Position numbers and translations under genes: made by a program
IMG/VR virus record: IMGVR_UViG_3300044716_000631
Length of the DNA stretch: 20,012 bases
Direction: 5' to 3' (one strand)
Source of the DNA: a virus
Taxonomy: Duplodnaviria; Heunggongvirae; Uroviricota; Caudoviricetes
The notes under the pieces: model-generated
Told to the model about the DNA's origin: nothing
The model's database searches: none
Seen by the model: only the letters and a program-made list of their open reading frames with translations
Part shown: positions 1,882 to 20,012 of the stretch, one piece after another
Numbering within the stretch: position 1 is the first letter of the stretch
Layout: every line of letters begins with the position of its first letter

Positions 1882-3237
1882 TTACATAAGGTTCGAGATA
1901 AGAACGCGACGGTAGTACTTGTTCGAATCCTGCTCAAGAGTAGCTGTTGAATCAGCAGCTGTAGTACCCTTAGCGAATGGATTTGGAGCCATGCCGTAGC
2001 GAGTCTTGAAACCGATCTTTGGCTGGAATGAACCTGGATCAACTGCACGAACCATTTGTAGTGGAACGTATGGGCAGTAGAAGAGACCAGCGTCATATGG
2101 GTTTGAACCCTTATAACCAACTACAAGGTAGTTAGTGCCAGCATATGGATCGATGTAAACCTTGATGCGACCATTGATAACACCAGCAAATGTATTGCCT
2201 GTGTCGTCGATGTTCAGCGAGTTTGTGTTAAGTGCTGGAGCATAGTCCAGAACACCAGCCATCTGAAGTGCAGAAGCTACGTCTGACGAACAGATGATGA
2301 TGTTACCCTTACCACGACGAGTTTGCTTAGCAATCTGGTTGCATTCACGCTCGATTTGGAATAGGAGACCCTTGAACTTTTCAACCATCCAACGACCGTT
2401 TGAGTCGGTGTCAAGATCGAAGAAACCAGCTGTTGTTGTGCCGTCAGCAGCACCGCGCTCAGCAGTGATGATGATTGAGCGAACAACTTCGCGGTTGATT
2501 TCTGCAAGAATTTCAGCTGACAGAATGTTTGAAAGTTCTGTTTCAGCGTCAAGGCCGTGAATTGCCTTAAGATCTTGTGCAAGCTCAAGAGTGTATTCAG
2601 CCTTGAGAGCGCGTGTCTTAGCAGCAACAGTTACCTTCTCGATTGAGAAGCCCATTTCTGGGAATACGTAAGTGCTGTTTGCACCAAGAAGTTCGCCCGA
2701 ACCAAGCAGAAGACCCATTGTGTAGTTATAGGTCGAGTTGCCTGCGTTGTTCGAAGAACCAGGAGCTGTACCAACAGTGTTAGCACCAACAGCAGTTGCT
2801 GAACCAGCACCTGTGTTAGCAGCATTAACGCCAGCGCCTAGACGCGAAGCGTGGCCTGTGTTTGCTTCGCCGTAGAATGCTTCATCACCAAGAGCGGTTG
2901 AGTTGGCATACTTCGAACGCATTGCAAAGATAAGACCTGTTGGGCCTGACATTGGCTGAACGCCGCAGATGTCATAAGCGATCAGGTTTGGCATCGAACG
3001 ACGAACCAGCGAGATAAGCACTGGGTCGAAGTTTGCAGCGTTGCCTGCAGTGTTTACGTGTGTAGCTTCACCAAGAAGGTGCTGCTGTCCACCCTGAGAT
3101 GCTGACTCACGAAGAGCAGCTTCAGTGTTTTCTAGAATTTGTGCGGTTACATAACGCTTGTGTGCGCTACCGATCTCTGGGAGGTCAGTGTGCTCAAGCA
3201 CTGGCTTCCACTTGTTTTGTAGTTCCTCAGCTAACAT
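1882..3237 (-). CDS. gp23: Major capsid protein (T4 gp23 family)
   Basis: 451 aa: KWKPVL, FDPVLISLVRRSMPNLIAYDICGVQPMSGPTGLIFAMRS, EMGFSIEKVTV.AKTRALKAEYTLELAQDLKAIHGLDAE, YCPYVPLQM, FQPKIGFKTRYG. Probable gp21 cleavage at LLGE|A. Confidence 0.99.
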   Translation of the reverse strand: MLAEELQNKWKPVLEHTDLPEIGSAHKRYVTAQILENTEAALRESASQGGQQHLLGEATHVNTAGNAANFDPVLISLVRRSMPNLIAYDICGVQPMSGPTGLIFAMRSKYANSTALGDEAFYGEANTGHASRLGAGVNAANTGAGSATAVGANTVGTAPGSSNNAGNSTYNYTMGLLLGSGELLGANSTYVFPEMGFSIEKVTVAAKTRALKAEYTLELAQDLKAIHGLDAETELSNILSAEILAEINREVVRSIIITAERGAADGTTTAGFFDLDTDSNGRWMVEKFKGLLFQIERECNQIAKQTRRGKGNIIICSSDVASALQMAGVLDYAPALNTNSLNIDDTGNTFAGVINGRIKVYIDPYAGTNYLVVGYKGSNPYDAGLFYCPYVPLQMVRAVDPGSFQPKIGFKTRYGMAPNPFAKGTTAADSTATLEQDSNKYYRRVLISNLM

Positions 3238-3275: not shown

Positions 3276-3283
3276 TATTTATT
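3276..3283 (-). promoter_or_regulatory. Late promoter-like AATAAATA upstream of gp23
   Basis: One mismatch to TATAAATA; overlaps the gp22 TAA stop; same motif recurs before other late genes. Confidence 0.6.
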
Positions 3284-4262
3284 ACTTTGCGTTTCTTGAA
3301 ATTGATGCTACATAGTGGGCCATATGAGCTGGTACTTCTACCGGCTGATCTACACCATTTTCAGCTTCTTCAGTAACGACACCAGTTGAGACTTCCTTCT
3401 TTTCAGAGAAGTACTTGTCCTTGATGATGTTTAGCTTCTTTGCATATGTTTCAGCAGAGCTGAAGTCAATGCCTTCTGCTAGAGTGCGAAGCTTTTCAAC
3501 CTGAGTGGCTGCAAGTCCTTCACTTACTTCGTCGAATGTTGCTTCCTTGGTTGCTTCATCAAGAATTGCTTGAAGCTCAAGTTGCTTATTCACGGATTCG
3601 TCGAGCTTTTCTTCTAGCTCGTCGACTTGTGCCTGAAGCTCTCCGAGAACGTCGAGCTTTTCGTCAGGTACATTAATGTAGCTTTCTGCAAATAGGTTAC
3701 GTAGACCTTCCATGAAGTCTTCGGTAACATTTGTGCGGATTGAAGCTTCGATCGCAAGTTTGTTTTCTTCGATCCACTGCTCCACTACGTAATCAAGATA
3801 TTGATCGACCTTTTCGGTCATCTCTTCTTGAATGGCAACTACAGCTTCATCAAGCTTAGTTGCAAACTCTTCTTCTAGGCGAACGGTTTCAAGGTTCGAG
3901 CGAGCCGAAATAGCTGCTTCGAAGATTGTTGAAACTCTTTCTTTGAACTCTTCAGAAAGATCTTCGCCGCTGAACATTTCAGCAACGTCTTCCTTCATAG
4001 CGCCAAGTGTCGCTGCTGGCATCTGGCCAAGAGCCGGACCGCCACCAGGAGCTGTTGCCGAAGGAACGTTCTCAACGCCCAGTTTCTTGATCGAATCGTT
4101 AAAGAAGTGAGATAGATCCTCACCCTTTAGCTGAGCTAGCAACGAAGTAAATGTGGCTAGCATCTCTGTACGAGTTGGATTTGGCTTCAGTGTTTCTGAA
4201 GCTGCCGATTCATCGAGATTGTTTTCATTCTCAACGATATCAGTTAGTTCCTTATCTGACAT
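3282..4262 (-). CDS. gp22: Prohead core scaffolding protein (T4 gp22 family)
   Basis: 326 aa acidic coiled-coil: LSEEFKERVSTIFEAA, VDQYLDYVVEQW, F.EGLRNLFAE.YI.VP, EKLRTLAE; lies between gp21 and gp23; TAAGGAG RBS. Confidence 0.93.
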   Translation of the reverse strand: MSDKELTDIVENENNLDESAASETLKPNPTRTEMLATFTSLLAQLKGEDLSHFFNDSIKKLGVENVPSATAPGGGPALGQMPAATLGAMKEDVAEMFSGEDLSEEFKERVSTIFEAAISARSNLETVRLEEEFATKLDEAVVAIQEEMTEKVDQYLDYVVEQWIEENKLAIEASIRTNVTEDFMEGLRNLFAESYINVPDEKLDVLGELQAQVDELEEKLDESVNKQLELQAILDEATKEATFDEVSEGLAATQVEKLRTLAEGIDFSSAETYAKKLNIIKDKYFSEKKEVSTGVVTEEAENGVDQPVEVPAHMAHYVASISRNAK

Positions 4263-4299: not shown

Positions 4300-4971
4300 T
4301 CAGAATTTCGAAATTTCGTTGAGAAAATTCTCAAAGATCTTAAATTTCTTGGCTTCCAGGTCTCTAGAAGATACGGCTTTTTCAATTGTCTGAACAGTTT
4401 GCTCAGCAACTTGAGTTTTCTTGGCAATCAGCAATTCATTTTCCCAGATCCACTCTACGCCTTCCATGATACCATTTACAAAGGCATCAGGAGCAGAAGG
4501 ATCCGCTACAATGTCAGCAGCTGTTGCTAGATAGAAATCGTCTTGTACTTCGTTGATTCCTTCTTTGTTGAGCTTTAGTGAGCCCATACCACGAGAAGAA
4601 ACACCGAGCTTTACGCCTTCAGAAACAAGACCCTTGGCAATGTTACCAAATGGAGTATCCATTATCTTGGCACGACCAATGAAATTTGTACCTTCTTGAC
4701 GAAGATTTGTAATCAGGTGAGAAACACGATCTAGATTAATCTGTGGACCTTCTGGGTGACCGAGTTCACCGAGTGCTCTACCTGACTTCACGTATGATTC
4801 GTTGTAGCGTTCTACTTCCTTGGCAAGAGTCTCAACTGGATACATACGTCCGTTGCGATTCTTGATGCCACCTTGAAGGAACACACCTTCGATGAATACG
4901 TTCTTCTTACCGTCTTCACGAGCTTCGGTAATCGTTCTTAGGTCTTCAAAGACTTCTGTAATGAGTTTCAT
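4300..4971 (-). CDS. gp21: Prohead maturation protease (T4 gp21 family)
   Basis: MKLITE, IEGVFLQ...NRNGRMYP, ALGELGHP (His), LGVSSRGMGS (Ser), DIVADPSAPDAFV. Confidence 0.97.
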   Translation of the reverse strand: MKLITEVFEDLRTITEAREDGKKNVFIEGVFLQGGIKNRNGRMYPVETLAKEVERYNESYVKSGRALGELGHPEGPQINLDRVSHLITNLRQEGTNFIGRAKIMDTPFGNIAKGLVSEGVKLGVSSRGMGSLKLNKEGINEVQDDFYLATAADIVADPSAPDAFVNGIMEGVEWIWENELLIAKKTQVAEQTVQTIEKAVSSRDLEAKKFKIFENFLNEISKF

Positions 4972-4980
4972 CTTTTTACC

Positions 4981-5379
4981 TTAACTATTATTGTATTCTG
5001 AAACGAATGTACCGACCTTCTGAACTTCAAGAAGGACGTAACCATTTGCCGTACCAACAAACTCTACAGTGAGGTTTGCAGTTTGACCAACAGTCAGAGC
5101 CATACCGCAACCGGCATAATCCTTATAACCGGTTGAGTCATAGATAGCAACTGGAGTTGTTCCACGCTTAATGACTGCGTAACCAGCTGGATCGATACCC
5201 CAGAATGCCTGTGCAATATAAGCACCTGACAGTGTTTCATCACTTACAGCAAGACATGCAGATGTAGCATCTACGTTTGTAGTTGTGCTATTGCCAGATA
5301 CCTTGATGGTTGTATTCGCAACCGAAACATGAATAGTAGCAGCAGTGTTTTTCTTATTTGATACGAATGATACGGCCAT
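4981..5379 (-). CDS. Hypothetical 132-aa beta-rich protein in the head cluster
   Basis: TAATG-coupled to the upstream head gene, GAGGTG RBS, alternating beta-strand pattern; function not recognised. Confidence 0.75.
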   Translation of the reverse strand: MAVSFVSNKKNTAATIHVSVANTTIKVSGNSTTTNVDATSACLAVSDETLSGAYIAQAFWGIDPAGYAVIKRGTTPVAIYDSTGYKDYAGCGMALTVGQTANLTVEFVGTANGYVLLEVQKVGTFVSEYNNS

Positions 5380-6791
5380 TATTCACCTCTATGACTAATT
5401 GAGAAGTCGAGCATTGATTCAACACCTTCTGGTGTTTCACATGCTTCTAGAAACTTCTTTTGGTTGCCTTCATTTAATTTATCAAAAACAGAAAGCATGG
5501 TACGACGATGTGTTTCTGTCAGATCACCAAGAAGATCAGCAAGCTTTTCTTCCTTGCGAAGTGGCTTACCACCACGTTCTGCAGTTAGCTTAGCAGCAAT
5601 CGCCATAGCACGACGCTTGTCTTGTGACTTACCTTTGAATTGTGGAGCATCAGACTTTTGGAAATCCTTGACTACGGTTCCCATTGAAGCCGTATCCATG
5701 TTTAGCTTTTCTTCAATCGCTTCAACTTCTTCTTTAGTAAGCTTATCAGTAGCTCTTTTGATACCTGTTTCGCGGTTCTTACGAAGACGCTCTGCTTTAT
5801 CATAAGTATGTTGGTTAAATCTTTTACCGAAGTAACCGGTTTCACTGTCACCTTGGTATGCAGCGATTTTTGTCAGTGGAACATTCTTTGGTGACATTAC
5901 ATTCTTTGGTTGCTCAGCACCAGATGCTTTCTTGATATAAGAACCCATAGTTTTCTTTGAGAGTTCGTCGATCTGCTCAGCTTCTTCGTTAGCAATCTTA
6001 CGAACGGTATTCTTGCGATTGTAATACTTGCGAGCATCATCGGCAGTTTCACCGCTCTTCTTGAAAAGACCAGGAAGTTGCTTTACTGCTTTTTTAGCAT
6101 AAGAATCTTTTGTAGTCGCGGAGATCTCATCGATCTGTTCTTCATCAAGCATATTCTTACCAAGCTTGGTACGAACTGCCTTGGCAAGCTTTGATACATC
6201 AACGCCAAAATCTTTAGCAGCAGAACTAACATGGCTCTTGCGAATGTTATCACCATAACGCTTTTGCAGATGAGCAACAATCTTTGCAGTCTCATCGATC
6301 TGCTCAGCTTCTTCACCGTACATCTTATTAAGTGCACGGTTAACACCAACTGTGCGATTCTGCATCTTCTTGAGTTGCCCGTCATAACCCATCTTTGGCT
6401 TACGCGCACTAAAGTCTGCAGCGGCTTTCTTTGTATATGCACCCATTGTGCTCTTTGAAAGCTCATCTAGCTCTTCAGCTTCCTCAGCAACCTTTTTCTT
6501 CTTACGCAGAAGGTGGAAGTCATGAGCATCTACCTTGCCATTCTTATTGGCATCGATCTTGTGCTGACTACCCTTGAGTTCTTCGTAGACCTTTTCGTCT
6601 TCACCTGGGTTGTAACCATGGCGATCCTTACGGCGATCAGCCATCTTTACCTTGGAACCCTTAAAGACTTCGTCGTCATTGCCATTGCGATCTGCATGCT
6701 TGGCAACAACGTGCTTATCCACGAACTTTTGTTCGTCAGGATTCTTAACTTTCAGGTAACCTTCTAGGAATTGATTAAGCGTCTTCGCCAT
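5379..6791 (-). CDS. Prohead core / internal head polyprotein at the gene-68 position, made of repeated basic modules
   Basis: 470 aa; N-terminus MAKTLNQFLE resembles a capsid-targeting sequence; acidic linkers EEAEELDE/EEAEQIDE/DEEQIDE/EEAEQIDE/EEVEAIEE separate Lys/Arg-rich blocks. The gp68 link is positional only. Confidence 0.75.
   Translation of the reverse strand: MAKTLNQFLEGYLKVKNPDEQKFVDKHVVAKHADRNGNDDEVFKGSKVKMADRRKDRHGYNPGEDEKVYEELKGSQHKIDANKNGKVDAHDFHLLRKKKKVAEEAEELDELSKSTMGAYTKKAAADFSARKPKMGYDGQLKKMQNRTVGVNRALNKMYGEEAEQIDETAKIVAHLQKRYGDNIRKSHVSSAAKDFGVDVSKLAKAVRTKLGKNMLDEEQIDEISATTKDSYAKKAVKQLPGLFKKSGETADDARKYYNRKNTVRKIANEEAEQIDELSKKTMGSYIKKASGAEQPKNVMSPKNVPLTKIAAYQGDSETGYFGKRFNQHTYDKAERLRKNRETGIKRATDKLTKEEVEAIEEKLNMDTASMGTVVKDFQKSDAPQFKGKSQDKRRAMAIAAKLTAERGGKPLRKEEKLADLLGDLTETHRRTMLSVFDKLNEGNQKKFLEACETPEGVESMLDFSISHRGE
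5968..6314. repeat. Exact 20-nt direct repeat TCGATCTGCTCAGCTTCTTC (5968-5987 and 6295-6314) encoding the EEAEQID linker
   Basis: Both copies read directly; degenerate copies near 6128-6144 and 6463-6488. Confidence 0.85.
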
Positions 6792-7104
6792 CGTCTTCGA
6801 ATCCTTCTAAATCTTCGTCTTCTAATTCTTCTTCTTCGTCGTCTTCCCAGTCGATGTCTTCAAGATCTTCTTCATCGATTTCTAAATCTTCGTCATCGAG
6901 ATCTAGATCTTTGTCGTCAAGATCGAAATCATCTTCATCGTCGACAGTATCTTCTTCAGTTGCAAACATGCCTTGTGCGACAGAGATTCTCATGTCATCA
7001 ATAGCTGCACTTGCTTTCTGACCCATGATATCATCAAATGCAGAAGCGAACTTTGTCGGCTGCTGATTCATAGAAAAGTTGATAAGATCATCAATATCGG
7101 CCAT
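6775..7104 (-). CDS. gp67: Prohead core protein (T4 gp67-like)
   Basis: Start moved from 7137 to the ATG at 7104 (GGAGG RBS); 109 aa with helical N-half (FASAFDDIMGQKASAAID) and D/E-rich tail; directly downstream of the portal. Confidence 0.8.
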   Translation of the reverse strand: MADIDDLINFSMNQQPTKFASAFDDIMGQKASAAIDDMRISVAQGMFATEEDTVDDEDDFDLDDKDLDLDDEDLEIDEEDLEDIDWEDDEEEELEDEDLEGFEDDGEDA

Positions 7105-7124: not shown

Positions 7125-7132
7125 TATTTATA
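7125..7132 (-). promoter_or_regulatory. T4-type late promoter TATAAATA for the gp67 operon
   Basis: Exact consensus, 1 nt after the portal TGA. Confidence 0.8.
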
Positions 7133-7133
7133 A

Positions 7134-8777
7134 TCACGCTGGTTTCTTAACTAGATCTGGAACCTTAGGAAGAGAAGGAACTTTTGCCGTCTTTCCTGTG
7201 TCTGGTCCTAGAGCTCCACTTGTATCTTCTGGTCCTGGAGCCTCCATTGGCTGGCCATCTGGTCCCATTTCAACCGGTGGATTATATTGTGGATTTTCTT
7301 GTTCTTCAACGATTTGCTCGTCAATTTCCTTCATGTCTTCTTCAGTCTGATACAGAACATTACGACGTACCCATTCGTGTGAGTAGTACTTGCCTGTATA
7401 GTCATCAATATCACGAAGCATTGAGATACGATCACGAAGAATTTCAGTATTTCTTAATTCAGCAAAGTGGTTATCTTCTGAATATTCATACTTAAAGTTA
7501 GTTCTAAATTCTTGCCAATCTTCACTGGTAATAACACCCTTGAGGATAAGTTGCTTCTCAAGAATCTTATTAAAGAGTTCTGAGAACTTACCACGAAGGC
7601 GAGTAATAAACTTAGCAAACTTAACTTCATCACGTGAAACTTCAGTAGCACGACCAAAGCTATAGTTTTGTTCTGGATCAAGACGAGTAATTGGAACGTT
7701 CAACGACTTATAAAGCTTACGTTGGAAGTAAACCACATCATCCATTTGGCCAAGGTTTTGACCACCAGGAAGAGTTGTAATTTCTGTACCTTTACCACCT
7801 TCACGACGTGGTAGCCAAAAATCTTCAAGCATTGTCATGTGCTTACGGTCGTCACGAATTTCACCAGTCTGAGCATCGTAAACTACGCGGTTCTTAAAGC
7901 GAGTCATAATATCACGAAGATATTGCTCAGCTTTCATCTTTGGTAGGTTACCAACATCAATGTAGAAAATACGACGTTCTGGAGCACGAGAAATACGATA
8001 GATAACCAGTGAGTCTTCCATAGACTTTAGCTGGTTGAGTGGCTTGATTGCCTTTTGCAGGTAACCAATCACCATATCACCACCGACATTTACTAGTCCA
8101 GATGATGTATTGACAACGGAATCTACAGCAATACGAATGCCCTGTGACGCAGGATCGTTATAAGTAGATCCTTGTGTAGGTGCTTTAGCGAATCCTTTAT
8201 CATTATAGATATAGAATTCTTCAGCAGTCTTATTGATAATTACGTTAGTATTCTTATTCGCCTTGACTCTCTTCTGAGTCTTAATCTTACGAATCTTACG
8301 CGGATCAACGTATCTTAATTCTTTGATACCTTCACGCGGTGCTTTTTCATCGATGATAGCATGATAGTAAAGTCTACCATCAACATACCATTTACGAAAG
8401 ATTTCATATGCGTGTTGGTTAAATTCAAGAAGTTCGAGAGTATTATCAAACTCTTCTAGAATCATCTTCTTGATATTTTCTGGTTGTTCTAGATCGTCAA
8501 GGTTCAGAGATACGATCTCTTTCTTGGGATCCATTACAATAGCTTCATTGACAATATCGTCAACTGCCATTTCAATATCTGGATGCATAGAGATTTCACG
8601 GTACTTGCTGACAAGTTCCGCTTCGTTTCTTACTGCACCTTCAAGATCTACGTATTGGCCGTATGCGCCACCTTCGGAAACGACAAGTGCACCATCTTCT
8701 TCCAGTTTTGGAGCAAAAGATGGTAACTCTTCTTGTGGTTTCTTACGAACAATTTCAAAACCAAATAACTCGGCCAT
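7134..8777 (-). CDS. gp20: Portal vertex protein (T4 gp20 family)
   Basis: Start moved to the ATG at 8777 (MAELFGFEI; AGGAG RBS). Motifs: FRKWYVDGRLYYH, YRISRAPERRIFYIDVGNLPKMKAEQYL, EDFWLPRREGGKGTEITTLPGGQNLG, ISRDE-like VSRDEVKF. Confidence 0.98.
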   Translation of the reverse strand: MAELFGFEIVRKKPQEELPSFAPKLEEDGALVVSEGGAYGQYVDLEGAVRNEAELVSKYREISMHPDIEMAVDDIVNEAIVMDPKKEIVSLNLDDLEQPENIKKMILEEFDNTLELLEFNQHAYEIFRKWYVDGRLYYHAIIDEKAPREGIKELRYVDPRKIRKIKTQKRVKANKNTNVIINKTAEEFYIYNDKGFAKAPTQGSTYNDPASQGIRIAVDSVVNTSSGLVNVGGDMVIGYLQKAIKPLNQLKSMEDSLVIYRISRAPERRIFYIDVGNLPKMKAEQYLRDIMTRFKNRVVYDAQTGEIRDDRKHMTMLEDFWLPRREGGKGTEITTLPGGQNLGQMDDVVYFQRKLYKSLNVPITRLDPEQNYSFGRATEVSRDEVKFAKFITRLRGKFSELFNKILEKQLILKGVITSEDWQEFRTNFKYEYSEDNHFAELRNTEILRDRISMLRDIDDYTGKYYSHEWVRRNVLYQTEEDMKEIDEQIVEEQENPQYNPPVEMGPDGQPMEAPGPEDTSGALGPDTGKTAKVPSLPKVPDLVKKPA

Positions 8778-8793
8778 TTGGACTCCTGTTAAC

Positions 8794-8824
8794 AAAAAAA
8801 GTAAGGGGAATGGTTACCCCTTAC
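8794..8824 (-). terminator. Rho-independent terminator after gp19
   Basis: 8-bp stem GUAAGGGG/CCCCUUAC, 8-nt loop, followed by U7. Confidence 0.85.
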
Positions 8825-8827
8825 TTA

Positions 8828-9364
8828 TTACTGACCACCAGCTCTATCGGTGGTGCCACCACTTACAGTCCAGTAATCGTACGAGAATGTTACCTGGAAC
8901 GATTCAATCTGATCTGTTGTACCCCAATCGAGTTCGATTGGAGAAATAACACTTGGGAAGACTCCATTGAATGTATATTCACGAAGCTTCGAACCGTCCT
9001 TAGCATACTGGATTACAGTAGCATTTGACTTATAACGATTGATATCGCGAACATTACGCTCAAGACGATTGATTCGGTTCGACCATTCTTCCATGGCGTT
9101 ACGAATCAGGAAGTCTTCATCATTGATAACTGTTACTGTCCAGTCACCGAATGTTCTATCTCCAGCCAACTTCATTTGGCGGCCGAAGTAAAACACAGGA
9201 ATGACACCCAGTTGAGATTCTGGAATCTGAGCAGCCTGAACCATGAAAGGTGTTTTCAGGTCGCCCGAAGCATTTGCAGGATTGTTAATACGCACCTGGA
9301 AAAGATTCTGACGTGCACCGCCGTAAACCAGTTGGCTTCTCATTTCATTGATATTAAAAGCCAT
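8828..9364 (-). CDS. gp19: Tail tube protein (T4 gp19 family)
   Basis: GGARQNLFQV, AAQIPES.LG.IPV.YFGRQMKLAGDRTFGDWTVTVINDEDF.IRNAMEEW, FP..ISPIELDW...IESFQVTFSYDYW. Confidence 0.97.
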   Translation of the reverse strand: MAFNINEMRSQLVYGGARQNLFQVRINNPANASGDLKTPFMVQAAQIPESQLGVIPVFYFGRQMKLAGDRTFGDWTVTVINDEDFLIRNAMEEWSNRINRLERNVRDINRYKSNATVIQYAKDGSKLREYTFNGVFPSVISPIELDWGTTDQIESFQVTFSYDYWTVSGGTTDRAGGQ

Positions 9365-9388: not shown

Positions 9389-9396
9389 TATTTATT
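9389..9396 (-). promoter_or_regulatory. Late promoter-like AATAAATA upstream of gp19
   Basis: Overlaps the gp18 TAA stop; followed by a GGAGG RBS. Confidence 0.62.
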
Positions 9397-11830
9397 AGAA
9401 CTGGCCGACAACTTCGTTGAACTCTACGCCGGATCTTACAGCAACAAAGTTCAGTTGGATGAAGTTGATGCTCTTAGCTGGCTTAATGTAGATGTCACCA
9501 ACAAAGCGGTTTGTATCAACAACTTCTGGAGTATTGTTTGTTTCGTCGCAAACAACACGGAAGTCAATGATACCACGGCGGCCCTGGATATCACGGAGGA
9601 ATGGTTCAATCAGATTCAAGAATTGAGATCTTGTGAATTCATCATTGAACTCAAAGAGCATCTGATTAGCAGCTGTTGCAATTGTCTTTTCAAGGACAAT
9701 AAACAGACGACGTACGTTGATACGATCGAATGCGCTTGAACGACCAAGAGCGGTCTTGTCACCGAACAGAACTGTTCCTTGACCTGGCTGCGTGATTACT
9801 GGGTTGATGTCGTTCTTATAAAGAAGATCACGATCTGTCTTGTTAGGGCTATAAGCCAGCTTTACAAGGTTCTTGATTTGACCACGATTGTAACCAGCTG
9901 GTGAGAACCATGGATCACGTAGATCGTCCGAACGAGCTGTTAGACCAGCAATATCACCATTCAGTGGAACATAGCGATATACGTCGTTGTACTTGTCGTA
10001 CTGGTACTTATAACCAGAATCGATGAATGCATACGAGCTGTTACGCAGACTCTGACGGAATGTTACGATATTTGCAGCTTGTGAGCCTTCAACACCTGAA
10101 CCAACAACGTCTTCCTTCTGAGGTGATACGAATACCACACAGTCCTTACGAACATCGGCAATGTTATCGATCAGATAGTTAGCTAGCTGTGCACCGTTTG
10201 ATGCACCAACTGATTTACCAGTCATGAGCAGAGATACGTCAACCAAAGATGAATCAGCGAAGAGATCATAAGCTGTAGCTAGAGCAGCAACAGATGTCGA
10301 ACTTTCTGTTACACCATCGCGTCCACCGATAAACGATTTAGCATATGGAGCACTTGCTGTAGAATTTGTAAGACTTGCTGCAGCAGCTGTAGCAGCTTCT
10401 GAACGATCGTTCGTTGCCCATACATAGCGTGAGTTGTCATTTACAACTGTCTTATAGAAAGCAGTTGTGCCATCTTCGCCAATAGCGTCTGTAGCACGCG
10501 AAAGATTCTCGTAAACTTCAAGGACTGTTCCAGGTGTACCTGAGAACTTACCATCTTCGTCTACAACTACAACACTTACTTGGTCAACAGTTGTTAGGCC
10601 ACGATCTGCAAGATAGCTTGATGTGCCTGGAGCTGCTGGAACAGTATTGAAGAATTCCCACTTACGTGTGATTGTATTCGAACTGAAGTTCGAAGCACGA
10701 TTCCAAGTATCTTCAAATGTAATTGGGAAGTATGCTAAAGTTAGATCGTTGAACGTAATAGCTGTAGGAAGAGACTTAATCTTTAGAGTCTGAGTACCAA
10801 CAGTTGTGTTACCAAGTTCAATATAATCACCAACAGACAGAGACGATAGAAGTATTTCTGTAGCTGTTTTTGTTTCAGCGTATGTAAGGTTACCTTCACC
10901 AGCACCATTTCCGGCCCAAGTAAGAACAACGTTAGCAACATTTGAATTAACAGAAACGCTAATTGCTGCATTTGCAAGTTGATTTAGTTTAAAACCATCA
11001 TCTGCAGTAACAGTAGCAGGACCAGCAGCAGCACCACCAACACTGTTTCCGCTAAACATGTTGATTGTGCGTGTATATTGATTTGCTGAATCGCACATAG
11101 AAACACGAAGCGAGTTACCAAGATCACCTGGATAACGAGCTACAAACTGCGTGCTTGCAAAGGTAGCATTTGCTGGACCCTTGTCTTCGAAGTCATCCGC
11201 ATTCTTGACAATGCTATCTGCAAGTTCAATAACACCACTATTAGCAACTGCGTTCAGTGCAAGCGTTGGTGTGATGAAGTTAACATGTGTATCGGTGCTG
11301 TTTAGAGTGCCATTTGCAAATGTAACAACTTTATTTAAAGTATAAAGTGTGTGTGTTGCTGGAACACCAGCAGCATTTACAACACCTGTGCTATTAGCAG
11401 TTGTCAGAATGCTACCAATTGTAACACCTTCTGGGAAAGTTGCAGAATATACAATGTCGCCAACTGTAGCACCAGCTGGGTTTCCAGCGGTTGGAACCAG
11501 AATAGTAGAAACTTCTGTAGTGCTTGTCAGATTAGCTGAAGCAGCTGCAACTGTGTTTGAGAAACCAGTTGTTACAGCAGCACGGCTTACATATAGAGCA
11601 TTACCATATGCAAGGAAGTTAGCAGCTGTAAAGAAGGTTTCGAAATTGTCTGATGTTGGCTTGCCGTAACGTGCGGCAAGAGTATTTTCTGAATCTACTA
11701 GAATGAACTTTCCGATAGGACCCCAACGGAACACACCACCAATGGCACCAACAGTGGTTGCCAGCGATGGGATGGTAGTAGTTAGGTCGATCTCAGATAC
11801 ATTAATTCCAGGGCTGACTTGAAACGCCAT
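9395..11830 (-). CDS. gp18: Tail sheath protein (T4 gp18 family), 811 aa
   Basis: MAFQVSPGINVSEIDLT, GVFRWGP, ARYPGDLGN, DSGYKYQYDKYNDVYRYVPLNGDIAGL, PWFSPAGYNRG, FDRINVRRLF, YIKPAKSINFIQLNFVA. Confidence 0.98.
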   Translation of the reverse strand: MAFQVSPGINVSEIDLTTTIPSLATTVGAIGGVFRWGPIGKFILVDSENTLAARYGKPTSDNFETFFTAANFLAYGNALYVSRAAVTTGFSNTVAAASANLTSTTEVSTILVPTAGNPAGATVGDIVYSATFPEGVTIGSILTTANSTGVVNAAGVPATHTLYTLNKVVTFANGTLNSTDTHVNFITPTLALNAVANSGVIELADSIVKNADDFEDKGPANATFASTQFVARYPGDLGNSLRVSMCDSANQYTRTINMFSGNSVGGAAAGPATVTADDGFKLNQLANAAISVSVNSNVANVVLTWAGNGAGEGNLTYAETKTATEILLSSLSVGDYIELGNTTVGTQTLKIKSLPTAITFNDLTLAYFPITFEDTWNRASNFSSNTITRKWEFFNTVPAAPGTSSYLADRGLTTVDQVSVVVVDEDGKFSGTPGTVLEVYENLSRATDAIGEDGTTAFYKTVVNDNSRYVWATNDRSEAATAAAASLTNSTASAPYAKSFIGGRDGVTESSTSVAALATAYDLFADSSLVDVSLLMTGKSVGASNGAQLANYLIDNIADVRKDCVVFVSPQKEDVVGSGVEGSQAANIVTFRQSLRNSSYAFIDSGYKYQYDKYNDVYRYVPLNGDIAGLTARSDDLRDPWFSPAGYNRGQIKNLVKLAYSPNKTDRDLLYKNDINPVITQPGQGTVLFGDKTALGRSSAFDRINVRRLFIVLEKTIATAANQMLFEFNDEFTRSQFLNLIEPFLRDIQGRRGIIDFRVVCDETNNTPEVVDTNRFVGDIYIKPAKSINFIQLNFVAVRSGVEFNEVVGQF

Positions 11831-11873: not shown

Positions 11874-11881
11874 TATTTATA
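11874..11881 (-). promoter_or_regulatory. T4-type late promoter TATAAATA for gp18
   Basis: Exact consensus overlapping the last codon and TAA of gp17. Confidence 0.8.
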
Positions 11882-13550
11882 AGTTAAGGAAATTGCGTTT
11901 TTGCTCTGCCCAGAACTCGTCTCGATAAGTATTATCATTTCCAATCAAAGATTCATTGCTTTGATCGTCATATTCGTCATCACCGGTACTCATTAATCCA
12001 AACGGAAGCATCTCTTCTTCAAACATTCTTTCGTTTTGTTCATAGATTTGCTTACGGATATCAAGGTCTGTAAGTTCTTTTAAATATGGTTGTGTAGTTA
12101 ACCAAGCAAAGAGAACGCAGCACATGGCCATATCGTCATGGCCTTCTTCTGCTTCGTATGATTGGTTACCTTTTAGACTATTCTTGAGTGAGAATCTTGT
12201 CAATTCATAAATTGTATCATAGTCTGAAATAATAAACTTGTCAGATTCTATAAGAGTCTTGAGTGTAGCACATCCAATTCTTTTTACCTGCTTGGTAGTT
12301 CTTACACCACGAGTCGTTGAAGTAGCAAAACCACCAGAAAGACTTTGGCCAGACCTACCATTATTGGCAGTTACAAAGATACCTTCATATTCTAGGTCGT
12401 AGTGAAGAATATCTGCAACCTGTTGGCCAATATCGTTTGTTTCTACAAGTACAACTGCATCATTATAGTGCTTTGCCACTTCGTAGATAATATTAGGATA
12501 CAATAGTGGACTCAATAGATTGTTTCTAAATGTGGCAACTTGTCTGTATGGTAGGTTATTTACATTCACTACAATAAAGGCTGAGTAGTCAGCACCGGCT
12601 CCTCGAGAAGTATCCACTACAATTGCATAGATGTTATCTTTAATTGGTTCTTCATAGACTTTCAGACCAGCTGGTGTCGTATGAATTGGATGCTTATAAA
12701 CCATATTACGAAGTTTATTTGGATTAATCAGCGTGTTCGAAGATCCAAGAAACTCACACTCGTATTCCTGTCTGAACTGGTCTTCAGAAGTATTGGAAAT
12801 TGTTTCTTCTTTCCATGCCTCATCACGACCTGGAATCTGTGACCAGTGAACGTCGACACGAGCATAAGCATTACGACCTTCTTCAGACTCTGTCCAGATA
12901 CGATAGAACATGTTCATACCGTTTGGTGTCGAAGTCACAAGAACCTTTGAACTCTGACCAGATGAAATGGTAGGATAAACCGATGCAAAGAACTCATCTT
13001 GAATGTTGGTCGGAACGAACGCAAACTCGTCGAGGTATACCATGTTCTGCGAAGTACCACGAATAGCAGAAGATGACGTAGCAGAAGCAAGGATTTCAGA
13101 TCCATTCTCCAGCTTAATGTTACCCTTGTTCCATTCGGTAACTCCCATCTGGAGCCACTTCGGAAGGTGTTCAAACATAAGCTGAATACGACCAAGAATT
13201 TCTCGAGCCTGTCTGTCTTTGTTGGCGAGAATAGCGATGGAATATTCTTCGTTAAAGAGAATCTTCCATAGCAGATAAGCAGCAACCGTAGTTGTCTTAC
13301 CAACCTGACGAGGCATCTTACAGATAACAAAACGATTGGCCTCAAAGGAAAGAATCATTTCCTTCTGGAATTCCCAGAGCGGGAACATAATAAGACCCTT
13401 GTCAATATTGACAATCTTACAATAAGTTAAGATAAAGTAGATTGGATCTTCAGAGCACTTGATATACTCAGCAACTTGCTCTGGAGTATACTCGACCTTT
13501 GTATCTGCTCTTTTAAGTCTAGGATTACCTAGATAATTTTCACTGCTCAT
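11877..13550 (-). CDS. gp17: Terminase large subunit (T4 gp17 family)
   Basis: YLGNPRLKR, MPRQVGKTT (Walker A), MVYLDEFAF (Walker B), TSTPNG, FRQEYECEF, nuclease VDTSRG..ADYS and HDDMAM. Confidence 0.98.
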   Translation of the reverse strand: MSSENYLGNPRLKRADTKVEYTPEQVAEYIKCSEDPIYFILTYCKIVNIDKGLIMFPLWEFQKEMILSFEANRFVICKMPRQVGKTTTVAAYLLWKILFNEEYSIAILANKDRQAREILGRIQLMFEHLPKWLQMGVTEWNKGNIKLENGSEILASATSSSAIRGTSQNMVYLDEFAFVPTNIQDEFFASVYPTISSGQSSKVLVTSTPNGMNMFYRIWTESEEGRNAYARVDVHWSQIPGRDEAWKEETISNTSEDQFRQEYECEFLGSSNTLINPNKLRNMVYKHPIHTTPAGLKVYEEPIKDNIYAIVVDTSRGAGADYSAFIVVNVNNLPYRQVATFRNNLLSPLLYPNIIYEVAKHYNDAVVLVETNDIGQQVADILHYDLEYEGIFVTANNGRSGQSLSGGFATSTTRGVRTTKQVKRIGCATLKTLIESDKFIISDYDTIYELTRFSLKNSLKGNQSYEAEEGHDDMAMCCVLFAWLTTQPYLKELTDLDIRKQIYEQNERMFEEEMLPFGLMSTGDDEYDDQSNESLIGNDNTYRDEFWAEQKRNFLNL

Positions 13551-19259: not shown

Positions 19260-20012
19260 TTATTTATCCTCTTTGAGTGAGTTAATTTGTTGTTCTAGTC
19301 TATTTATATGTGTTTGTTGTTCCTTAATTGCTTCAATTAAGAGACCAACCATGTTGCCATAAGCTACGCTATAGTTGGTTTCTTCTGAACCAAGCACAAC
19401 TTCAGGAATTACTTCTATTACTTCCTGAGCGATTACACCCATCTGTCTTGTATTAGTATCTATACGTGTATATGTATAACCGTTTAATCTGCTTACCTTT
19501 TCAACAGCGTTGTCGATCTTGACAATATCTTTTTTCAAACGAGCATCTGAATACGCTGTGATGTTGTTAAGCATCGTCAGGTTACCAGACATATCCATTT
19601 GAAGTAGGTTAGCTGAAGCTGACCAACCACCAATTCTGAATACGTTGTCTGAATCAAGTCCCATATTAACAGCATATACACCGGCTCTATGGAATGCCAT
19701 TGTAGCGCCGGCAGATCCGCTTGAATACACTTGCAGCGGTGCATTCGTATCTGTAGTATTTCTATTAGCCTGGAAATACTGAACACCGGTCCATGTCGCA
19801 TTAAGGCCTACTAATGAATTCAATACGTGCTGAACCGAAGACTTTCTATAATAACCATCAAGACTACTATTAACAGTAATGAACTGCCCAATAGTCGGAT
19901 TTTCATTATTGCCAGTATTACTATTAATATAGTTCAGGAAAGTATAACCGTTTTCCTGTCGTGTTACAATTGTATTTGCACCAACTCCATTTGATGCCTG
20001 AAAACCATCAAG
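19260..20012 (-). CDS. Tail fibre protein C-terminus with peptidase S74 intramolecular chaperone (runs off the window end)
   Basis: The frame stays open from the track's TTG at 19823 to 20012 (LDGFQASNGVGANTIVTRQENGYTFLNYINSN...). Contains AY|SDARLKK (Ser at 19548-19550, Lys at +5), GVIAQEV..V.PEVV, SVAYGNMVGLLIEAIKE and a coiled coil. Confidence 0.93.
   Translation of the reverse strand, partial: LDGFQASNGVGANTIVTRQENGYTFLNYINSNTGNNENPTIGQFITVNSSLDGYYRKSSVQHVLNSLVGLNATWTGVQYFQANRNTTDTNAPLQVYSSGSAGATMAFHRAGVYAVNMGLDSDNVFRIGGWSASANLLQMDMSGNLTMLNNITAYSDARLKKDIVKIDNAVEKVSRLNGYTYTRIDTNTRQMGVIAQEVIEVIPEVVLGSEETNYSVAYGNMVGLLIEAIKEQQTHINRLEQQINSLKEDK

Follow-up and report, generated by a model that had tools for sequence, protein, structure and literature searches.

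A probable prohead-core polyprotein built of shuffled basic modules in the gp68 position of an uncultured T4-like phage

Introduction

The internal proteins of phage T4 are the textbook case of proteins that are packed into the capsid and co-injected with the DNA. They are encoded by separate small genes that share a 10-residue address, and one of them, IPI*, blocks a host restriction enzyme. Could a T4-like phage deliver such proteins as a chain from one gene? The question is raised by a 20,012-nucleotide stretch of viral DNA (IMG/VR record IMGVR_UViG_3300044716_000631), which as a whole is called the window here. In its head operon, at 5379..6791 on the minus strand, lies a gene for a 470-residue protein in which Lys/Arg-rich blocks alternate with acidic linkers that end in a motif of the prohead-protease type.

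A first-pass annotation, made from the letters alone, had described this gene as a polyprotein version of the T4 internal-protein locus, from which about six or seven small basic proteins would be released. Its observation is confirmed by our analysis, and its interpretation is partly supported. We put at roughly 60% the reading that the gene encodes a late-expressed prohead-core polyprotein, with a leader and a trailer for targeting, gp21-type cuts at the junctions, and basic modules kept with the DNA as internal proteins. The observations behind this reading are the genomic context, a late promoter motif, the architecture of the protein, the conservation of its junctions, module-sized insertions and deletions (indels), and the kinship of the leader; from these we infer targeting, cleavage, retention, ejection and module function. 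The components, namely the capsid-targeting sequence (CTS), the specificity of gp21 and internal proteins, are already known (PMC3012670; PMC9026906).

Results

The protein has a constant part at each end and a string of modules between them. Its features are the following.

5379..6791, minus strand: polyprotein gene (P0001), ATG start, 470 aa; leader, five cargo modules and trailer (list of open reading frames, ORFs, and translation)
6762..6791, minus strand: tag, residues 1-10, MAKTLNQFLE; degenerate, T4-CTS-like; K3, L5 and F8 invariant in 77 relatives
6576..6791, minus strand: leader, residues 1-72; constant, with the tag, a P-D-E-Q-K-F-V-D-K-H motif, a DRNGNDD loop, a GEDEKVYE end and many invariant columns
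6462..6575, minus strand: EF-hand-like module and linker EEAEELDE, residues 73-110; loop DANKNGKVDAHD; sub-threshold Pfam matches to EF-hand_1, EF-hand_7 and Dockerin_1
6291..6461, minus strand: basic module type C, residues 111-167; starts LSKSTMGAYTKKA, linker EEAEQIDE (module clustering)
6126..6290, minus strand: basic module type G, residues 168-222; helices like a helix-turn-helix (HTH), ends LDE217/IDE222; weak match to Cro, E=0.16
5964..6125, minus strand: basic module type A, residues 223-276; starts ISATTKDSYAKKA, linker EEAEQIDE (module clustering)
5709..5963, minus strand: long type C basic module, residues 277-361; starts LSKKTMGSYIKKA and continues to KLTKEE, linker EEVEAIEE
5562..5708, minus strand: module D1, residues 362-410; starts MGTVVKDFQKSDAPQFKGKS and continues to MAIAAKL
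5382..5561, minus strand: trailer, residues 411-470; constant C-terminus, LTE426 and LNE441 conserved, ends MLDFSISHRGE
5699-5732, 5954-5987, 6116-6149, 6281-6314 and 6452-6485, minus strand: five copies of a ~34-nt junction repeat (repeat search, repeat family D1), 62-100% identical to the reference copy

Translation of the minus strand gives MAKTLNQFLE as residues 1-10, as first described; the plus strand over 5379..6791 is full of stops and has no open frame. Five (L/I)-x-E sites close at E110 (LDE), E167 (IDE), E222 (IDE), E276 (IDE) and E361 (IEE), spaced 57, 55, 54 and 85 residues apart. Each is the last Glu of an acidic octamer (EEAEELDE, EEAEQIDE, LDEEQIDE, EEAEQIDE and EEVEAIEE, in that order). 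The blocks between sites are rich in Lys and Arg, with a pI of 10.1-10.5 and a net charge of +8 to +11 when the acidic tail is set aside, and three of them begin with the shared motif S..T...Y..KA, as had been quoted. The list of cut sites given in the first-pass annotation stands for these five junctions and fails for E10, which reads F-L-E and, with Phe at P3, does not fit (L/I)-x-E. It had also passed over LDE217, which makes the third linker a double site together with IDE222, and two conserved C-terminal sites, LTE426 and LNE441.

The repeats in the DNA match the junctions in the protein. Their start-to-start spacing (171/165/162/255 nt) is that of the junctions, and the linkers ending in E167 and E276 share 22 of 30 nt. 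The number of (L/I)-x-E motifs in the whole protein is modestly above chance (8 vs 4.1 expected, P=0.04), and the weight of the observation lies in the placement of the sites, the repeated octamer and conservation across relatives rather than in the count. Cuts at the junctions are predicted to yield products of 54-109 residues, with a pI of 9.3-9.6 for the four interior modules.

Relatives of the protein are abundant and all metagenomic: at least 2979 of 258-823 aa, 883 shorter ones and a few of 846-996 aa. They have no Pfam family or telling name; where a source names them at all, it is as hypothetical protein or with a stray label such as glutaredoxin 2. Junctions in these relatives were read upstream from the module-start anchor S..T...Y..KA, and not from the linker, to avoid circularity. 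P1 was Glu and P3 Ile or Leu in every one of the 110 unique junctions of the family (110/110 for each); P2 was Asp or Glu, and P8-P4 read E-E-(A/V)-E-(Q/E). Distant clusters were found with one module as query, and here P1 was again always Glu (197/197 unique junctions) and P3 always Leu, Ile, Val or Met (197/197), with at least seven different residues at P2 and a looser P4-P8. Module D1 (MGxVVxDF) is also preceded by Glu at a fixed distance. Some proteins start MKTYKQLQE, and the Glu of this L-Q-E tag is as far from D1 as the linker Glu is in the window protein. T4 gp21 cleaves after Glu in L/I-x-E (PMC9026906). The earlier description of the junctions as prohead-protease-type sites agrees with this published rule, with P1 and P3 conserved across both the 110 and the 197 junctions.

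The same motif is missing from the module bodies. Pooled over the family and compared with shuffles, (L/I)-x-E was found 0 times in type A bodies (12.1 expected) and 0 times in type C bodies (9.1 expected). It was also depleted in the leader (15 vs 36.9 expected), and enriched in the C-terminal part (113 vs 66) because of the two conserved sites there. The test was made at family level since within the single window protein, where 0-0.4 sites are expected per module, it has no power.

The ends of the protein are kept and its interior varies. All relatives retain the N-terminus MAKTL(N/K)(Q/D)FL and the C-terminus MLDF(S/A)I..RGE, and invariant columns are many in residues 1-72 and 362-470. When the 120 best matches were cut at the junction motif and the pieces clustered, 62 architectures of 2-8 segments emerged, in which the leader and the C-terminal part are constant and the interior modules differ in number and order. 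Minimal forms of 186-226 aa join the leader straight to the C-terminal part, and long forms of 846-996 aa retain the leader and the trailer (the last ~60 residues) only. Type A is the commonest module type, with 150 copies among the 120 proteins. The long type C module occurs in 116 representative clusters, in proteins of 92-1379 aa and often in several copies.

Close relatives differ by whole modules. P0006 and P0007 (84-85% identical to the window protein) have an exact 57-aa gap in place of the type C module, residues 111-167, and P0008, in the same range of identity, has an exact 55-aa gap in place of the type G module, residues 168-222. The more distant P0025 (61% identical) has an 86-aa gap at the long type C module. 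The breakpoints of module indels fall within the repeated linker. An invariant module number had been named in the first-pass annotation as evidence against its reading; across relatives the number is far from invariant, given 62 architectures and module-sized indels.

The modules also occur in other genes. A sister family (P0162-P0176), whose members have the MKTYKQLQE start, contains the same modules in another order, with D1 directly after the tag; in a different T4-like lineage it fills the slot between the portal and an 85-aa gene on one side and a 125-aa gene and the protease on the other. P0207 (257 aa) joins the leader and the EF-hand-like module to a Dps/ferritin-like domain (PF00210), which suggests that the leader can carry folded DNA-binding cargo, although its 1.2-kb contig is short enough for a chimera. 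A tblastn search of 50,697 phage records gave matches to module D1 and the long type C module (277-361) in five cyanophage isolates (seven records). Stretches of cyanophage proteins share 72-82% identity with D1, and the annotation of one such protein is DUF6321 domain-containing. The carriers, in P-TIM68 (1006 aa), S-SKS1 (682 aa) and Sf-CH8 (402 aa, DUF6321), are large basic proteins encoded outside the head operon, and in them the long type C and D1 modules are again preceded by acidic (L/I/V)-x-E joints.

Within the window and the nearest 46-kb record (G001), the polyprotein gene was the only ORF found with a CTS-like start or at least two linkers. The copy in that record (L012, G001:C1, 10735-12139) has a 56-nt deletion at codons ~67-85 that shifts the frame and leaves ORFs of 68 and 410 aa. 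This could be an assembly error or a real disruption.

The EF-hand-like piece is a module of its own, because some minimal forms omit it and other proteins carry it at other positions. By eye its loop DANKNGKVDAHD fits the EF-hand pattern, a helix-flanked 12-residue loop D-x-(D/N)-x-(D/N)-G-x-(I/L/V)-x-x-x-(E/D). Its Pfam scores fall below the cut-offs (EF-hand_1, 15.8 bits vs 25.4; EF-hand_7, 17.1 vs 30), and its predicted local distance difference test (pLDDT) value is ~45-58. The leader has a second invariant Asp/Asn/Gly-rich loop, DRNGNDDEVF, at residues 34-43. Together the DANKNGKVDAHD and DRNGNDDEVF loops hint at the binding of divalent cations. Pfam and PHROGs searches with the whole protein and with each module returned sub-threshold matches and one unnamed PHROG only.

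AlphaFold2, given a 77-sequence alignment, modelled a string of helices without a fixed mutual arrangement (mean pLDDT 59, predicted template modelling score 0.20). It was confident only at residues ~168-212 (pLDDT 81-86), making type G the best-modelled interior module, and at residues 365-470, where the trailer reached 77-83; the leader had low pLDDT. Four of the five junctions have values below 50 at or next to them (stretches 102-117, 157-162, 212-232 and 355-363), and E276 lies in a stretch with pLDDT 58-68. Foldseek against the PDB gave no match with E<2 (best E=2.4), and an ESM Atlas look-up of residues 362-470 gave only unnamed viral clusters with scores below 0.8 and no fold match.

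Could the protein stay whole? It might be an elongated, helical, modular DNA-binding or core protein that is never cleaved, its junctions being kept for structure (helix continuation and masking of the basic modules) and for DNA recombination. Junction conservation spans 8-10 residues, which is more than gp21 needs, AlphaFold2 predicts continuous helices across the junctions, and the ~34-nt repeat and the module-sized indels show a recombination joint whatever else the junction does. Against this, P1 Glu and the P3 hydrophobic residue (Leu/Ile/Val/Met) are invariant in the distant families while P2 and P4-P8 vary. The same two residues stand ahead of module types that are unrelated to each other (S..T...Y..KA, D1, G and EF-hand-like). 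Whether D1 comes after a linker or after an N-terminal tag, its distance from the Glu does not change, and (L/I)-x-E is missing from module bodies where 9-12 would be expected. We consider an uncleaved protein clearly improbable.

The N-terminus links the polyprotein to the T4 internal proteins. T4 ipII and ipIII start MKTYQEFIAE, and ipI starts MKTFKEF...ITE. In this T4 tag, residues 4 and 7 are important for targeting; for processing it is residues 8 and 10 (I/L and E) that count, and Asp at position 10 blocks it (PMC9026906). Of 92 module-sharing proteins, 20 start M-K-(T/S)-(F/Y)-x-x-(L/I/F)-(I/L/V)-x-E (for example MKTFKQMISE, MKTFKELLE and MKSYKEFKE), and distant leaders start MKTF..(L/I)(L/I)SE. 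Alignment shows that such tags head the same ~70-aa leader, with a P-K-S-x-D-E-x-x-F-x-D-K-H motif and a G-E-D-E-x-V-Y-E end, and this leader also heads distant polyproteins of 450-950 aa. The tag of the window protein is degenerate: an Ala2 is added, Leu replaces the aromatic residue, and the end reads F-L-E. With the extra Ala removed, L4 and F7 are present, and F-L-E is one residue short of L-x-E. Among 132 close relatives ~75 have FLE and ~50 have FLNE, which fits the rule.

The proposal of a capsid-targeting-like N-terminus is supported through the leader family, whose other members start like T4 IPI, IPII and IPIII; the tag of the window protein itself is a degenerate form. A cut after E10 in this gene is doubtful because the site reads F-L-E. 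The first 10 residues had been taken as the targeting tag. They are akin to the T4 tag, and the capsid address is probably longer, comprising the ~70-aa leader and the C-terminal trailer, both of which are conserved.

Beyond the tag, similarity to the T4 internal and core proteins was not detected. BLASTP of the polyprotein against T4 gp67, gp68 and gp21-23 gave nothing significant (gp68, E=1.2). Against IPI, IPII and IPIII the best E values were 0.1-8, with nothing significant beyond the first 6-17 residues, and these in relatives. The polyprotein matched no Pfam or PHROG internal-protein family. Homology of the trailer was rejected by hhalign, both for T4 gp68 and for the small proteins that Mosig and HTVC008M encode in the corresponding position (probabilities 0.1-0.3%, gp68 0.3%). 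The mature N-terminus of T4 IPI (ipI, L015 13592-13879), ATLTSEVIKA after ITE, weakly resembles the module start after IDE, LSKKTLGSYVKKA; this likeness (BLAST E 0.4-8) may be chance.

The genes around the polyprotein gene are all on the minus strand and are given in gene order.

11877-13550, minus strand: large terminase, first in gene order
9395-11830, minus strand: tail sheath
8828-9364, minus strand: tail tube
7134-8795, minus strand: portal gp20
6775-7104 (listed with a GTG start to 7137), minus strand: acidic protein in the T4 gp67 position; helical N-part and poly-Asp/Glu tail (ORF list)
4981-5379, minus strand: 132-aa ORF between the polyprotein gene and the protease gene
4300..4971, minus strand: prohead protease gp21 (Peptidase_S77), the presumed processing enzyme; Pfam PF03420 E=6.7e-33, phrog_207 E=3.2e-83
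3282-4262, minus strand: scaffold gp22
1882-3237, minus strand: major capsid protein gp23
3067..3075, minus strand: L-G-E57 followed by Ala in the major capsid protein, in the region of the T4 gp23 maturation site, L-T-E65 followed by Ala
7125-7132, minus strand: T4-type late promoter motif TATAAATA upstream of the acidic gene and the polyprotein gene
1791-1798, 7125-7132, 11874-11881 and 19301-19308, minus (coding) strand: all TATAAATA motifs, upstream of late structural genes

UvsY-like and UvsW genes follow gp23. The T4 order is 20-67-68-21-22-23, which puts the polyprotein gene in the position of the gene for gp68, a core protein of the T4 prohead. It had been called a version of the T4 internal-protein locus, but it is not a counterpart of that locus. 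It overlaps both neighbors, the end of the acidic gene with its start codon and the start of the 132-aa ORF with its stop. The S77 protease gene lies 0.4 kb downstream and encodes a protein with 38.6% identity to T4 gp21 across 153 aa. The T4 gp23 propeptide has 65 residues (PMC9026906), and in our alignment E65 of T4 gp23 was confirmed as the E of FLTE followed by AE.

Exact matches to TATAAATA number four in the window, all on the minus strand, vs 0.85 expected, and 0 of 100 shuffles reached four. The late-promoter logic of T4 appears to be conserved in this phage. The motif at 7125-7132 sits just upstream of the probable ATG of the acidic gene; since the listed GTG start lies upstream of the motif, the true start is probably the ATG at 7104 (MADIDD...). 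The acidic protein did not align with T4 gp67 in BLAST and has weak PHROG matches only, so that it resembles gp67 in position and architecture only. The capsid protein is ~60% identical to those of Stenotrophomonas phage DLP_6, the pelagimyophages Mosig and HTVC008M, and Melnitz, and likewise to those of Sinorhizobium phiM12-like phages and cyanomyophages. Because of these identities we take the phage to be an uncultured T4-like myovirus of an aquatic lineage.

Two other ORFs were noted. The 132-aa ORF is Thr/Ser/Val-rich and has no Pfam or PHROG match; ORFs of 125-130 aa occupy its position in Mosig, HTVC008M and locus L009, and its BLAST similarity to the Mosig counterpart is marginal (E=0.016). 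An Arg/Leu-rich ORF of 127 aa at 6083-6466 (minus strand), read in a different frame within the polyprotein gene, most likely arises as a side effect of the Lys/Glu-rich coding frame.

The position of the gene also fits a plainer role. The protein could be a functional equivalent of gp68, a core or scaffold component that is discarded. Its modules would then be filler or size-setting mass, and its gp21-cut pieces would leave the head before or during packaging, as fragments of gp22, gp67 and gp68 do. It holds the exact gp68 position behind an acidic protein in the gp67 position, T4 gp68 too has a very basic C-terminal half, and the constant leader and trailer suggest a role in assembly. In T4, cleavage breaks the core proteins into many fragments, most of which leave the head (PMC9026906). 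Several findings make this rather unlikely. Module bodies lack cut sites and would survive as folded basic proteins of 6-12 kDa instead of small peptides, and basic proteins should bind the incoming DNA. The modules also occur in the large cyanophage proteins encoded outside the head operon, and one leader is fused to a Dps-like ferritin domain. Rapid module turnover is unexpected for plain filler, and neither BLASTP nor hhalign found similarity to gp68.

A third alternative places the protein outside the virion altogether, as a late nucleoid or DNA-coating factor in the infected cell that merely shares composition and short motifs with capsid-targeted proteins. Its basic, helical nature and HTH-like module would suit that role. 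We regard this as very improbable, given a gene located between portal and protease whose start and stop codons both overlap adjacent genes, a sister family that fills the same slot in another lineage, a family of T4-CTS-like tags, and junctions of the protease type.

Discussion

The reading we favor is that of a polyprotein of the prohead core. During head assembly, the constant ~70-aa leader with its degenerate T4-type tag would take the protein into the scaffolding core, and the constant ~60-aa trailer probably assists its entry. The gp21-type serine protease would then cut after the Glu of the E-E-(A/V)-E-(Q/E)-(I/L)-(D/E)-E junctions, with further cuts possible at LTE426 and LNE441. The products would be the EF-hand-like piece along with some five small, helical, Lys-rich proteins of 6-12 kDa. 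Their basic nature should keep these proteins with the packaged DNA, as is the case for T4 internal proteins, and they may leave with it at infection. The repeated junction would double as a recombination joint, so that modules can be gained, lost and exchanged between phages and between genes.

Several points weigh against this reading. The main weakness is that the junction is conserved far past the three-residue motif, over eight residues of the acidic stretch and the Leu-Ser after the cut, and is clearly a recombination joint, so its invariance alone does not prove cleavage. It could be conserved purely as such a joint. The hydrophobic residues at P3 and P1' could continue the amphipathic helix of the module, and helix is also what the AlphaFold2 model shows at the junctions. 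The junction and depletion counts come from related sequences and are not of independent events. Each module keeps its acidic tail after a cut at Glu, which lowers its net charge to +3 to +6. The F-L-E end of the window gene's own tag breaks the L/I-x-E rule, and beyond the tag the window protein has no similarity to T4 internal proteins, gp67 or gp68. Neither the leader nor the trailer was found in any isolate among the 50,697 phage records searched by tblastn. The literature yielded no virion proteome for the family or for P-TIM68 and S-SKS1, and no N-terminal sequences for the family.

The system can be set beside several that are known. Like T4 IPI, IPII, IPIII and Alt, the wider leader family has an M-K-T-(F/Y)-x-x-(F/L)-(I/L)-x-E tag, and as with the T4 internal proteins there are small basic products (here predicted), a T4-type S77 protease encoded nearby and L/I-x-E junctions (PMC9026906). 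T4 Alt has processed parts at both ends, as predicted for the polyprotein. Each T4 internal protein is a separate gene elsewhere in the genome, whereas here the modules are strung together in one head-operon gene and would be released in equimolar amounts. The T4 address is 10-19 residues long, in contrast to a conserved ~70-aa leader and a trailer in the polyprotein, and the predicted mature parts of the polyprotein have no sequence similarity to internal proteins and follow a tag that ends F-L-E.

Like T4 gp67 and gp68, the polyprotein is encoded between portal gene 20 and protease gene 21. The C-terminal half of T4 gp68 is basic, and the protein contains many L/I-x-E sites. Both gp67 and "gp6" (so printed, and presumably gp68) yield multiple fragments when gp21 cleaves them (PMC9026906). 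The polyprotein differs from gp68 in being three times longer and in having an interior of shuffled cassettes that occur in other genes too.

Polyvalent proteins (Iyer et al. 2017) are multidomain products of late or virion genes for which packaging and delivery along with the DNA are predicted; their domain content is highly variable, and they sometimes undergo proteolytic processing (PMC5512222). Their recognisable domains, two to fifteen in one polypeptide, are enzymatic or anti-restriction (MuF, ART, a metallopeptidase termed MPTase, ParB-like), and processing, where known or predicted, is by their own peptidase domains (PMC5512222). The polyprotein resembles them in having many modules and a late-gene context. 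Unlike theirs, its modules are tiny Lys-rich helical units without a Pfam family, and its joints carry a prohead-protease motif. Pfam, and Foldseek against the PDB, detected no polyvalent-type effector domain (MuF, ART, peptidase or ParB-like) in it. In the giant phages phiKZ, 201phi2-1 and SPN3US, many head-internal proteins are cut after Glu at short motifs by a gp21-related protease (PMC9026906). There, propeptides are removed from individual proteins, in contrast to the chain of modules seen here.

A chain of interchangeable cargo modules with one standard linker was not described in the literature we searched, and no paper was found on the junction or module motifs, DUF6321, or CTSs outside T-even-type phages. 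Specific to the window gene are the gp68 slot and a fixed leader and fixed trailer around a variable cargo region. A possible, still tentative extension is that aquatic T4-like phages use the gp68 slot as a plug-in cargo bay, in which the leader and trailer would bring whatever they flank into the prohead, the junction would serve as both cut site and joint, and injected effectors would be swapped as cassettes. Equally tentatively, these effectors may be DNA-coating, ion-binding or anti-defence proteins, swapped within one essential head gene and between genes. The core protein at the gp68 position as the ancestral carrier is a possibility that this raises.

If the polyprotein reading is true, very abundant uncultured aquatic T4-like phages would deliver internal-type proteins as a head-operon polyprotein made of interchangeable cassettes with a single cut-and-recombine joint. 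Thousands of unannotated Lys-rich phage proteins would then be explained. With the junction as a sequence rule, capsid cargo and the ends of mature proteins could be predicted in metagenomes, and the leader and linker would be a natural design for loading foreign proteins into T4-type heads.

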